A stretch of 64,000 bases of DNA from the NCBI RefSeq assembly GCF_016026235.1, contig NZ_CP065613.1; one strand, 5' to 3'. Made by a program: the position numbers and the translations under genes. The notes beneath the pieces are model-generated. The model had not been told where the DNA came from, ran no database searches, and saw nothing but the letters and a program-made list of their open reading frames with translations. This DNA comes from Escherichia coli. GTDB lineage: Bacteria; Pseudomonadota; Gammaproteobacteria; Enterobacterales; Enterobacteriaceae. Each line of letters opens with the position of its first letter. Position 1 is the stretch's first letter. Positions 14,569 to 37,640 of this stretch are shown in pieces.

Positions 14569-15106
14569 ATTGCACAGGCCGTAAGAACCAAACCACGACT
14601 GAATGAAACTGGACTGGCGCCAGCAAGCCTGTTCAGACTGGGGCTGAACTTTTCCGGACTCTGAAAGATTACCAATACTCATCGTCCATCCGCTTGCTTT
14701 AGGCTGACAGGTTCATAATCAACGCAAACCAGAGCTGTACAGGCTTGGGCGCGGCTTTCAAACCAGTCGTGATCACGGCAATCAATTTTGAACTCTGCTT
14801 AACGGACATTTCTGTATAACCCTTACGGCAACGAAAAACGCGAAGTTAAAATTTTAGAAACCCAAAAACGTGACATGACTAAGTTTAGATTTCAGGGGGG
14901 GAGATCAAAAAATTTCGCTCTGTGCCAGAGCGGACATTCACGGAGCTGGTTCATTACCAATGAGGTTGGGCTTTTGAGGATAAATCAATGATCAGACGCC
15001 AACGTAAATCAAAAGCAACCCTAGAACGGAATTGCTAATCCAGTTTCTGACCATCGATTTTTCTAAAAAGTGTGCGTTTGCTACTACTTAGGTAGGTGCA
15101 GCTTTC

Positions 15107-15360
15107 TTAATCACCGGCAGCCACGTTATACAGGCCAGTTGATGGATCGATTGTTATCAATGATATCTTCATGAGTCGGTGTCTCACCCAGCTTACCGAA
15201 GCTGGCATAAAGTGAAGGCAGACGGGCCCGTCCTTCTCCCTTTTTCGCCAGAGGGAAAGCGCGAAGCATGGTGGCAGCCTCCCAGTCACAACAATAGGAT
15301 GGTGTGCACGGCTGCTGACGCCATGATTCAGCGATAGAGCCGGAAAATACGGGGTCAAAG
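15107..15360 (-). pseudogene. 3' fragment of an unidentified gene, interrupted by the IS10-like element and cut 5' by IS911
   Basis: reading frame ..LVNDTGFDP | VFSGSIAESWRQQPCTPSYCCDWEAATMLRAF.. is continuous across the IS once one copy of the 9-bp duplication is removed (16664-16761 joins 15360). Confidence 0.3.
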
Positions 15361-16654
15361 CCTGAGGGATCCCCAGAAAATTTAGTAAACCATTATCATA
15401 TTGGTATACCGTTGCTGTAGAACTTTCAGCCCTGCGTCAAGTGACAGTGTGTTTAGTATGAGTGGAGAATGTCGAATCACATTCTCCGCCAGTTTTAATA
15501 ACGAGATGACTCGCCTGTGCTTCACTGTATTTGCCTGATATTTATGATGTATCCCTTTGTTTTCCAGGCTGAAACCGCTTAACCACATAATGATACTGGC
15601 TAATGTTGCGATCAGACTCAATACCGTGACCCGCCCGGATGAATGACTGGCACCAAACCGTAGTCCAAATCCCCAGCGAGGATTTTTTTCATCCCTGAAA
15701 TTTTGCTCAATTTGCATTCTACGGCTGTATAATTTCATTACCTGTTTTGGCGAGAACTCAGTACTGTTTGTGAAAATAAACCATGGTGATTTCCCGGCAG
15801 TACGAGCTTTAGCCGTCACCGATGGTCTGGTTGCTCTTTCCTTCGAGCGTTTAAATCTACGACCTTTAGGCTTACTTTTATAAAGATAAAAATGCCCTTC
15901 ATGTTGTGCATTTTTATCTCGACCCAGCAGGCCTTCACCTAAATAAATTGCTGTCGTTGATGCTTTTGTGCCTGAGTCCGACACCTTTTCCCAGCCATTA
16001 CCAACATTGTAATAATGATTGCCCAGTACCCGGCAAATATAGGTCCAGCCACGGGAGCGGAGCTGTTGGAACCATCGCCCTGAAAACCGGCATCTGTAAT
16101 AACAATGACATCAGTCCCGGGGGAAAAGCACTCAGCAAGCGATTCCAGAAAACGCTCATGTACATCTGCATTCGCTGTCTGTGATGATGGAACGACACAA
16201 CTCATCAACGGTAAAGAACGCCCGTCACATGCCAGGCTTGCCCGCAAAAGCTGAAAACGAGAGGCATGATAAGCACTCCAGTCAATGAGTATCACAACAC
16301 GAGACATTCCCCGCGTAATCTTTTGGGTAATTCGCTGAAAAATGGTGGAAACCTCATTTTGCAAATGTCGATTCCCCAACAGTCGATCCACCCGCTTTAT
16401 TTTGTTTTTAACTGATGCCGTACCGGTTAAATGACGCCCGATACTGGTAAGTGTGAGGGAAGCGCCATTTATTACAGCATTAGTTGCGTCAATCAGTGAT
16501 TTTTGACGGTAAAGATGCAAAGGGGCCAGTATATTGTTAAGGAAATTTTGGCATAATGAACGTGCAGGCATAGTGGTGATCTCCTTGAAATTGTTAGCAC
16601 AATCAATTAGATCACATCTCACTATGCCTGTCTTGTTTTCTGGGGATTCCTCAG
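15361..16654 (-). mobile_element. IS10-like element (IS4 family), 1294 bp, flanked by 9-bp direct repeat GGGTCAAAG
   Basis: terminal IRs CTGAGG(G/A)ATCCCC; duplication at 15352-15360 and 16655-16663; transposase resembles IS10 (KIKRVDRLLGNRHL, YSRRMQIEQNFRDEK). Confidence 0.75.
15382..16571 (-). pseudogene. IS4-family (IS10-like) transposase, frameshifted near 16070-16085
   Basis: N-terminal and C-terminal halves in different frames (ORFs 15939..16673 and 15382..15984); each half aligns to IS10 transposase. Confidence 0.7.
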
Positions 16655-16760
16655 GGGTCAAAGCCGGTATCATTAACCAGAGTCATCGTGACCTGTACTG
16701 CGGCTGGATGATCTCCTGCTACTGCAACTGCTAGGCGACCGCGGCTCCCTTCAGGTAGTC

Positions 16761-35803: not shown

Positions 35804-36125
35804 CTGATATGACTTTCCGTGTCAAACCGGAATCTCTAATTTTGACGATTTTCTTTTTAGGTTTAATTCCCTGAGGGCGACGTAGCAGTAAATCCGACGG
35901 TGAATCACGCTGATATTCGCGGGTTGGATACCGCATTACAGAGGTCCGTCATATGAGCCTGCCACTGATATGACTTTCCGTGTCAAACCGGAATCTCTAA
36001 TTTTGACGATTTTCTTTTTAGGTTTAATTCCCTGAGGGCGACGTAGCAGTAAATCCGACGGTGAATCACGCTGATATTCGCGGGTTGGATACCGCATTAC
36101 AGAGGTCCGTCATATGAGCCTGCCA
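35804..36125. repeat. tandem direct repeat, 2 x 161 bp, identical by eye; second copy is the left terminus of the IS110-family element
   Basis: unit tgatatgactttccgtgtcaaaccggaatctc...catatgagcctgccac at 35804-35964 and 35965-36125. Confidence 0.9.
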
Positions 36126-36231
36126 CTTTCTTACGTCGCGAATCAGCTTTGTTCCGCCGTCGCCAAGCGCTAACGTGGGTTACTCTTGTACCGGGCTACG
36201 TCGCCTTCAGGGAACTGGTTATTCTCATTTT
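35965..36231 (-). ncRNA. candidate IS110-family guide RNA (bridge/seekRNA-like) in the 3' non-coding tail
   Basis: 267 bp without ORF; long-range inverted repeat ccctgagggcgacgtagc (36029-36046) / gctacgtcgccttcaggg (36195-36212), second pair gctgatattcgcg / cgcgaatcagc; assignment is inference. Confidence 0.3.
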
Positions 36232-37358
36232 TTATTTGTGACATTGTGGTTGTTGTGCGACAGACATTGCTATTCGGCCCATATCCCAGATAAAACCCGC
36301 CAGCTCACGTGCAACAGCAACAATTGTAATATTGACATTCTTTCCTTTGGCCTGAAGTTTTCGATACCTCTTACAAAGCCTGAGTTGAGCATCCCATGCT
36401 CTGTCAATGACGGGGCGGGGTAAATTTTCCTGCCTTTTTTGTATTGCCGGACTGATGCGTGCCGGATGACGGTAACTCCACGCTGCCTCGACCAATAGCT
36501 TTCTGGCATAGCTGTTTCCGGCTTTGGTAATGCTGCCCTGATGTCTGCTTCCACCCGATGAATATTCTGATGGCGTGATACCAAACCATGACATCAGTTG
36601 TCGTGGATGTTCAAAACGGGTCAGATCACCCAGTTCAGAAATTAATCCAACCGCAGTAATAAACTGAATCCCTCGCATGGCTTGCAGCGCCTCTACTACC
36701 GGATACAGCCTCCATTCGGTAACGGCCTCCTTCAGGGCGGATTCCAGCCGTTCACATTGTGCCTGCCGGTCTTCTATTGTACGACGGTGTTCGTCAAAAG
36801 CTAATTGTCGCCAGGGACTTTCGAATGAGTATTTGCTGAGCCAGCGTCGGTGTGCAGGGCCCCAATCTGCTCGCCCGACATAATGGACCCCATGAACCAG
36901 AAGAAACGATTTCAGACGTTGCCTTGCATGCCGTAAATCATCGCGGGCAGATGCCCATGCCCGGGCCAAATCCCGGAATGCCTCATCTTCAATGCTGGGT
37001 ACGTAGACAGCAGAAAGATCTCCTGCACGCAGTGAACGCACAAGTCTGATGGCATCACGGCGATCGGTTTTAACCCGCTCCCCCGGTTTTTCGGGATAAG
37101 TGAGGGGGCGCAGACCATGCAGTCAAAACCGGATTTCACCAGCCGACGATAAAGTCCATAACCACAGGGCCCCGCTTCATAAACGATACTGACCTGCGAT
37201 GACTTTGACCTGAGACGTTTACAAAGATTCTGAATATCAGTAGGTGATGTGCCAATTTTACCCATCAGTTCAACAGGTTCTGAATTGATAGCATAAGCGA
37301 CAGTAATCGATTCTTTGTGAACATCTAACCCGACGTACAATGTGTTATTGTTGTTCAT
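36232..37358 (-). pseudogene. IS110-family DEDD transposase/recombinase, disrupted by 1-nt deletion in an A6 run (T5 on + strand at 37087-37091)
   Basis: N-terminal MNNNNTLYVGLDVHK..; restored frame reads [36 protein letters not shown]..; ORF track splits it into 36912..37406 and 36232..37041. Confidence 0.8.
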
Positions 37359-37640
37359 GCTGGCCTCCGTGGTGGAAATACCGGGGTGTAGCAACAGCTC
37401 ACCCATGCGGCTCTGACAACGATGTTAACCCGCGTTAAATATCCCACGTTGGCCAGCATCTGTCTCACGGAAAGTCATACTGCCTTACAGCCGTCAAAAA
37501 CGCATCTCACCGCTGATGGCGCAAATCCTTCTATAGATCGTAAAAAACGAATTTTTCCTACACTATAATCTGATTTTAACGATGATTCGTGCGGGGTAAA
37601 ATAGTAAAAACGATCTATTCACCTGAAAGAGAAATAAAAA

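Follow-up and report, generated by a model that had tools for sequence, protein, structure and literature searches.

A full-length ISSso6 copy at the apparent nhaA-proximal endpoint of a 126-kb inversion in Escherichia coli

The window analysed here, a 64,000-nucleotide stretch of Escherichia coli DNA (GCF_016026235.1, contig NZ_CP065613.1), carries the fec region on its left and the nhaA region on its right, joined at a copy of the insertion sequence (IS) ISSso6. This ISSso6 structure, at positions 35804–37485, is the apparent nhaA-proximal endpoint of an intra-replichore inversion of about 126 kb. The inversion was most probably produced by RecA-type homologous recombination between two pre-existing ISSso6 copies lying in inverted orientation. 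The evidence comprises an exact change of genomic context at the element, a reciprocal junction in a near-identical assembly, and the parental arrangements found in K-12, E. coli 042 and other relatives.

The window was compared, by open reading frame (ORF) listing and local Basic Local Alignment Search Tool (BLAST) alignment, with K-12, E. coli 042 and two other E. coli loci. Genomic context switches only at 35804–37485: the window is colinear with 042 up to 35805 and with K-12 from 37484. The original prediction had placed an IS-mediated rearrangement endpoint within 14.6–37.5 kb, which is borne out in a far narrower interval. The features at the switch are the following:

35794..35805, plus strand: left half of the island ISSso6 target (CTCGGAGCG-CT), which continues -TACGATTAATCGG in 042
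35804..35964, minus strand: partial ISSso6 copy of 161 bp, from the end that lies downstream of the transposase gene; repeats 35965–36125 perfectly in tandem
35965..37485, minus strand: full-length ISSso6, IS1111-type, with a CT common to each end; the apparent inversion breakpoint
36232..37359, minus strand: ISSso6 DEDD transposase gene, disrupted by the loss of 1 nt from an A6 run at ~37086
37484..37640, plus strand: 157 bp of native nhaA upstream DNA, whose match begins at K-12 position 17332

At 35803/35804, island sequence ending in CTTCTCGGAGCG meets CTGATATGACTTTCCGTG, which is the ISSso6 end downstream of the transposase gene. The opposite ISSso6 end, CACGGAAAGTCATACTGC, abuts CTTACAGCCGTC at K-12 position 17332.

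The two sides of this switch have opposite orientations relative to K-12, as had been proposed for the window from its gene order. By local BLAST, positions 1–4218 and 6019–15362 (IS1F, fecIRABCDE and yjhV) correspond to K-12 4.51–4.55 Mb in reverse, the gntP-fim block matching K-12 locus L004 (47815–43530) at 97.5–99.0% identity in reverse orientation. Positions 37484–64000, from nhaA to the caiT/fixA side, correspond to K-12 17332–42420 in forward orientation. Identity over 37641–64000 is 98.2–98.4% to K-12 and 99.95% to E. coli FDAARGOS_943. The overall map of the window is:

1..4213, minus strand: gntP (3′ part), fimH, fimG, fimF and truncated fimD; K-12 4.55-Mb DNA in reverse, interior to the inverted segment
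4214..4981, no strand given: IS1 copy, target duplication absent
4982–6018: 1-kb YmgB/AriR family gene segment, which directly adjoins IS1F in 042
6019..14568, plus strand: IS1F, ykiE and fecIRABCDE, 99.7% identical to K-12 and 042
14569..35803, plus strand: 21-kb fec-adjacent accessory island, colinear with E. coli 042
35804–37485, minus strand: partial and full ISSso6, where context switches
37641..64000, plus strand: nhaA, nhaR, rpsT, ileS, carAB and the cai/fix region, in K-12 orientation and outside the inverted segment

GC skew is about -0.03 over 1–18 kb versus about +0.05 over 38–56 kb, and this change of sign across the junction fits a recent flip of the left part within its replichore. 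The reported loss of the thr-dnaK-dnaJ-IS186-hokC segment from the window also stands. The IS110-family element noted beside nhaA is ISSso6, by the name that PGAP, the annotation pipeline for prokaryotic genomes, gives to identical copies and by its Pfam domains. The short native spacer between this element and nhaA is likewise real, but its length is 157 bp (from 37484 to the GTG start codon of nhaA at 37641) and not 158 bp.

The counterpart of the window junction is found in GCA_900449985.1, an assembly reached through the NhaA allele of the window. Its 4.56-Mb contig UGFA01000002.1 is 99.99% identical to window positions 27642–48000 (20.4 kb), and the match includes the 161-bp duplication. 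A small ORF spanning the hokC-side flank and an ISSso6 end located the reciprocal junction on the same contig. The order there is LacI-PTS IIA-IIB-IIC, ISSso6, hokC, an IS4-family element, dnaJ, dnaK and yaaI, and the LacI and phosphotransferase system (PTS) genes, of the PTS-ascorbate type, are the half of the island that is missing from the window. The junction sequence, GAAAGTCATACTGC followed by CTTACGATTAATCGGATGCAGTCC, is the exact right half of the 042 site.

The two ISSso6 copies on UGFA01000002.1 lie at 2,019,430–2,021,110 and 2,147,102–2,148,621 in opposite orientation, with 125,991 bp of unique DNA between them (positions and spacing by arithmetic from the record coordinates). Each junction copy has the full ISSso6 length. 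Among the four half-sites, island-left is paired with nhaA and hokC with island-right, so that the exchange of flanks is reciprocal. Because both junctions share a contig and their IS copies are inverted relative to each other, an inversion is indicated rather than a translocation or a mis-assembly. Of the two options first considered, inversion or translocation, the former is thus borne out by the junction 126 kb away, and the dnaK/dnaJ genes sought elsewhere are found in this near-identical assembly, with ISSso6 connecting them to the right half of the island.

Relatives retain the parental arrangements. In K-12 and others hokC adjoins nhaA, and in 042 the left and right halves of the island adjoin each other; a look-up of the PTS IIC protein returned eight contexts, all eight with an intact island. 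Three relatives, FDAARGOS_943, the enteroinvasive E. coli (EIEC) strain CFSAN029787 and GCA_901482675.2, have ISSso6 at this very position, 157 bp upstream of nhaA, between native flanks, hokC-dnaJ-dnaK lying on the far side of the element. The native flanks in these relatives indicate that the nhaA copy predates the inversion, and the comparison shows an ancestral ISSso6, as judged by these sequences, between hokC and nhaA. Looking up the YaaW allele of the relatives returned native arrangements only. FDAARGOS_943 carries ISSso6 in at least 15 places.

The recombinant junction itself is rare in public data. The junction of island and ISSso6 occurs in 0 of 5,426 complete E. coli genomes, and an exact-match scan of metagenome contigs found no island-right junction. 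A chimeric ORF of 74 amino acids matched only seven contigs, all but one too short to tell the arrangement. In addition to GCA_900449985.1, the island-left junction with ISSso6 is present in GCA_001907545.1, GCA_000805835.1 and GCA_031665325.1, giving at least four independent NCBI assemblies in all.

Both breakpoints lie at ISSso6 target sites. The empty sites read GTGAGCG-CT-TACAGCC upstream of nhaA in K-12 and CGGAGCG-CT-TACGATT in the 042 island, and the window retains the right half of the former (CT-TACAGCC). Their common 10-mer, GAGCGCTTAC (GAGCG-CT-TAC), is unique in the K-12 locus (45 kb) and in the 042 locus (41 kb), and in both it coincides with the breakpoint. The flanks of nine independent ISSso6 insertions at other loci give a target consensus of TA(A/G)CG-CT-TAC. 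With a leave-one-out weight matrix built on these nine sites, the island site scores 6.6 bits, against 1.3–12.1 for true sites.

Insertion follows a fixed geometry. At all nine sites CG-CT borders the ISSso6 end that lies downstream of the transposase gene, and CT-TA(C/T) borders the upstream end, so that the orientation of insertion is fixed relative to the target, and a long target duplication is absent. In the native orientation of K-12 and 042 the two breakpoint targets face opposite ways, and two insertions of fixed orientation into them would therefore be inverted repeats. More generally, since its short target recurs in both orientations, ISSso6 seeds inverted repeats at predictable places. 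The window also holds an unoccupied near match to the core target, AGCGCTTAC, at 17229–17237 inside the IS911 remnant of the island.

ISSso6 is a member of the IS1111 family within the IS110 group of ISfinder. Members of this family are described as having a DEDD transposase, subterminal inverted repeats of 11–13 bp with extensions of about 7 and 3 nt beyond them, and a long downstream non-coding region (PMC11187229). In ISSso6, the 13-bp subterminal inverted repeats (ATGACTTTCCGTG and CACGGAAAGTCAT) are followed by extensions of 7 nt (ACTGCCT) and 3 nt (GAT), and 267 bp of non-coding sequence lie downstream of the transposase stop (from 36232 to the IS end at 35965), compared with ~124 bp upstream. 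The PGAP label on identical copies is IS110-like element ISSso6 family transposase. The intact 375-residue transposase of an identical copy matches PF01548 (DEDD_Tnp_IS110, E = 2.4e-11) and PF02371 (Transposase_20, E = 8.1e-24), both above the curated cut-offs. The assignment draws on four features, namely the transposase, the repeats, the non-coding region and the target behaviour.

In these respects ISSso6 resembles the IS1111 elements that use a seekRNA, such as ISEc11 and ISKpn60 (Siddiquee et al. 2024, PMC11187229), with which it shares the transposase type, repeats, extensions and downstream non-coding region as well as insertion in one orientation only, at a short and specific target centred on a dinucleotide. 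The bridge-RNA recombinases of IS110 and IS621 are kin of this family. In that family the seekRNA is made from the non-coding region and is needed for movement; in ISSso6 such an RNA is putative. An Rfam search over ISSso6 matched no bridge-RNA or seekRNA family, and a k-mer search of its non-coding region for guide segments yielded only target matches of 6–8 nt, about the level expected by chance. Membership in IS1111 accounts for where ISSso6 lands, but not necessarily for the inversion step.

The transposase gene of the window copy is frameshifted. In GCA_900449985.1, whose junction is otherwise identical, its counterpart encodes the intact 375-aa protein, and five other assemblies encode the same truncated product of 148 residues at ISSso6 loci unrelated to this one; a look-up of the frameshifted window product matched unrelated loci only. 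This distribution suggests that the frameshift, at 37080–37092, reflects recurrent slippage or a homopolymer sequencing error and is no lineage marker.

The left end of the structure carries a further peculiarity. The two 161-bp units differ by 0 mismatches, and both boundaries of the duplication fall at a CT dinucleotide. The same 161-bp duplication is present in loci L016/L034, L035 and L048. A comparable event affects the same ISSso6 end at the nupG-speC site of GCA_031665325.1 (locus L047), where 205 bp are perfectly duplicated in tandem; two other loci (L043 and L051) have ISSso6 at this insertion site without the duplication. The 205-bp duplication is bounded at an internal AAGCG-CT-AAC that resembles the target consensus. 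Under a crude target matrix, the boundary CTs rank fifth and sixth among the 83 CTs of ISSso6, with scores far below those of true targets. A megablast search for the tandem-duplication junction also matched ordinary ISSso6 copies, as two re-ordered pieces. Self-insertion into a resident copy followed by collapse is one possibility for the origin of such partial duplications, and microhomology slippage is another.

The events behind the junctions can be reconstructed as follows. One ISSso6 copy lay between hokC and nhaA, 157 bp upstream of nhaA, and a second, putative copy would have lain in the island, with the aldose epimerase gene and IS fragment on one side and the PTS-ascorbate and LacI genes on the other. 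The two would have formed inverted repeats some 150–170 kb apart. A crossover inside these 1.5-kb copies would flip the DNA from island-left, fec, fim and gntP through to thr, dnaK, dnaJ and hokC, and leave two intact copies with hybrid flanks, island-left-ISSso6-nhaA and island-right-ISSso6-hokC. Complete junction copies with reciprocal flanks are the product expected of a crossover within inverted repeats. The recombination pathway itself we infer.

Several observations weigh against this homologous recombination scenario. The presumed intermediate, with ISSso6 between both island halves, was not found among complete E. coli genomes, ORF contigs or metagenome contigs, and because of this we infer the prior existence of the island copy. 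A crossover could not be mapped: among the 24 near-identical copies compared, each of the three variants seen in the two junction copies belongs to one copy only. Simple homologous recombination leaves the 161-bp partial copy on the island side unexplained. Furthermore, a one-step intramolecular transposition accompanied by inversion would yield the same end structure.

In such a one-step event only the nhaA copy would have pre-existed, and an RNA-guided intramolecular transfer into the inverted island target would have copied the IS and flipped 126 kb. The missing intermediate is in keeping with this, as is the position of the island breakpoint exactly at a canonical ISSso6 target with a CT core. 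A 2025 preprint describes an IS110 element with a copy-out, donor-preserving 'direct-transfer' pathway, and the end duplications that stop at CT (161 bp in the window, 205 bp in L047) indicate that aberrant events at ISSso6 ends occur. However, IS1111 and IS110 elements are described as moving into their targets through a circular intermediate (PMC11187229), and the literature cited here describes no intramolecular inversion product for either. Two ordinary insertions followed by homologous recombination require no new chemistry, and since ISSso6 is multicopy (FDAARGOS_943 has it in at least 15 places), one would expect to find it at a further good target as well. The one-step event is unlikely.

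In its most specific form, which we regard as distinctly doubtful, the RNA-guided DEDD recombinase of ISSso6 would itself have made the inversion by directing the nhaA copy into the inverted GAGCG-CT-TAC target of the island, and the 161- and 205-bp duplications would be its footprints on internal pseudo-targets. If true, seekRNA-programmed target motifs would directly determine large chromosomal rearrangements in the Shigella/EIEC group.

The same IS copy has also served as an exchange point in other assemblies. GCA_031665325.1 has a different left flank (L011) connected to the nhaA side by ISSso6, and in it the structure of island-left, 161-bp duplication and ISSso6 continues into a different right flank (L048). 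When the two foreign flanks are joined in silico, they are contiguous in 41 E. coli genomes (100% over 300 nt) at an IS66-type element. This arrangement indicates that a second reciprocal exchange took place, with a third ISSso6 site as partner. GCA_001260435.1 has another right flank again (L040), connected to the hokC flank by ISSso6.

Serial exchanges of this kind (L011/L048 and L040) lend some plausibility to a translocation or multi-step history for the window, in which the fec block moved beside nhaA and the thr-hokC block to an unrelated place. This is very improbable given that the reciprocal junctions lie 126 kb apart on one contig, with the IS inverted and the four flanks paired as for a single inversion. 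A chimeric assembly join is scarcely credible: mis-joins classically arise at structures like this one, a multicopy repeat carrying a 161-bp tandem duplication, but the island-left junction recurs in the four or more independent assemblies, one of them a 4.56-Mb contig, and its reciprocal exists.

The island left of the breakpoint, at 14569–35803, is by its colinearity evidently native to the fec locus and not itself a product of rearrangement. The fec and nhaA regions had been described as joined through this IS-rich island, a description that does not hold, as the island belongs to the fec side and is colinear in 042 and others. Window positions 6000–35805 align colinearly to the 042 locus (L001) at 99.2–99.9% identity, save for IS insertions and deletions. 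In both, the order is fecE, IS911/IS600 remnants, shf-capU-virK-lpxM, a BCCT transporter, DUF2254, TetR and deoR-rbsK-fucP-aldose epimerase, and a small IS3-type orfA fragment (84 aa) ends this order at the island edge. At least 80% of window positions 14000–38500 is found at one place in 22 complete E. coli genomes, and the alignments stop at window position 35805 every time. In 042, and in no fewer than 21 further complete E. coli genomes, the island has this gene order and lies beside fecE.

The window and 042 versions of the island differ in their insertions. IS100 and IS66 are present in 042 and absent from the window, while the window has its own IS4-family and IS2 insertions and ends at the ISSso6 target, its PTS/LacI half now being 126 kb away. 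K-12 has KpLE2 remnants at the corresponding fec-adjacent position. The gene for the TetR-family regulator (27092–27775) is intact in the window, and the 042 gene is split by IS100.

The shf-capU-virK-lpxM cluster is chromosomal at 18172–22048, as it is within the fec-adjacent island of 042. The shf gene encodes a polysaccharide deacetylase, and the lpxM copy is an msbB2-like lpxM2. These gene names are better known from the virulence plasmids of Shigella and enteroaggregative E. coli. Near the right edge of the island, just upstream of the 84-aa IS3-type orfA fragment, lies a partial, sub-threshold Rfam match to the small RNA AfaR (35300–35434, minus strand; 43.7 bits against a gathering score of 100, E = 1e-5).

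IS-driven inversion of this sort is already known and is an ordinary result of IS expansion in the Shigella/EIEC group. Seferbekova et al. 2021 (PMC8072062) note that S. sonnei and S. flexneri independently underwent an inversion involving the gene for the Na+/H+ antiporter, and that S. sonnei is enriched in elements of the IS110 family; recurrent exchange at the nhaA copy of ISSso6 agrees with both findings. As in the inversions described for Shigella/EIEC (PMC8072062) and the structural variants of S. sonnei (PMC12795559), inverted IS copies bound the inverted block in an IS-rich lineage. The present case differs in that the exact IS, both targets and both junctions are given at the nucleotide level; ISSso6 is not named at this breakpoint in either paper. 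No link was established with the ~130-kb S. sonnei inversion of PMC12795559, whose supplement gave no matches for nhaA, dnaK, fecA, hokC, thrA or gntP.

FDAARGOS_943 has a 155-kb pINV-like plasmid with a K88-like fae/cshE cluster and an NEL (ipaH-type) remnant, features described for the S. sonnei pINV (PMC12795559). GCA_031665325.1, which shares the island-left junction, carries ISSso6 between nupG and an ornithine decarboxylase gene (the nupG/speC region), an insertion resembling the 'IS110' between 'nupC' and 'ldcC' in a list for S. sonnei (PMC12795559). The matching assembly GCA_900449985.1 is labelled E. coli by NCBI (protein STM00756.1). We conclude that the lineage is IS-rich and belongs to the Shigella/EIEC-like part of E. 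coli, and nothing beyond that.

For genomes of the Shigella group nothing here is conceptually new. The result matters chiefly for annotation and synteny maps, in which the 21-kb IS-rich island can be assigned to the fec locus and one ISSso6 copy to the breakpoint. As a result of the inversion, thr, dnaK/dnaJ, fec and fim have switched replication strand. Strict site specificity does not prevent an IS from driving large rearrangements, and the nhaA copy has served different exchanges in different assemblies.

Two further complete elements lie within the island:

15363..16653, minus strand: IS4-family element (PGAP: ISEc60 family) whose transposase is frameshifted; target duplication of 12 bp, GGGGTCAAAGCC
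28025..29355, minus strand: IS2-like IS3-family element of 1331 bp with a 5-bp target duplication, TTCAG

Their 12-bp and 5-bp target duplications mark them as simple insertions and rule them out as breakpoints. The IS911/IS600 remnants occupy colinear positions common to the window and 042 or K-12. Together, the 042 colinearity and the target duplications exclude any other IS at 14.6–35.8 kb as a large-scale breakpoint, and the earlier proposal that any IS copy lacking a target duplication might be the breakpoint gives way to the ISSso6 structure alone.

Elsewhere in the window, two IS1 copies lack target duplications. The copy at 4214–4981 links the truncated fimD to the 1-kb YmgB/AriR segment, which is the left border of the 042-type island. 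This configuration indicates a likely IS1-mediated deletion of fimB through the 5′ part of fimD and nearby DNA, separate from the inversion. The copy at 41455–42222 stands in place of ~5 kb kept in FDAARGOS_943, where the 5′ part of a fimbrial usher gene, a chaperone gene, a fimbrial subunit gene and espX1 lie between the usher 3′ end and rpsT. The region 40775–42222 is, from this comparison, an apparent further IS1-associated deletion.

An IS4-family element also occurs between dnaJ and hokC, where K-12 has IS186. Its orientation in GCA_901482675.2 is opposite to that in FDAARGOS_943 and GCA_900449985.1, and the insertion site is apparently identical across these assemblies (L012/L037 versus L015/L031/L038).

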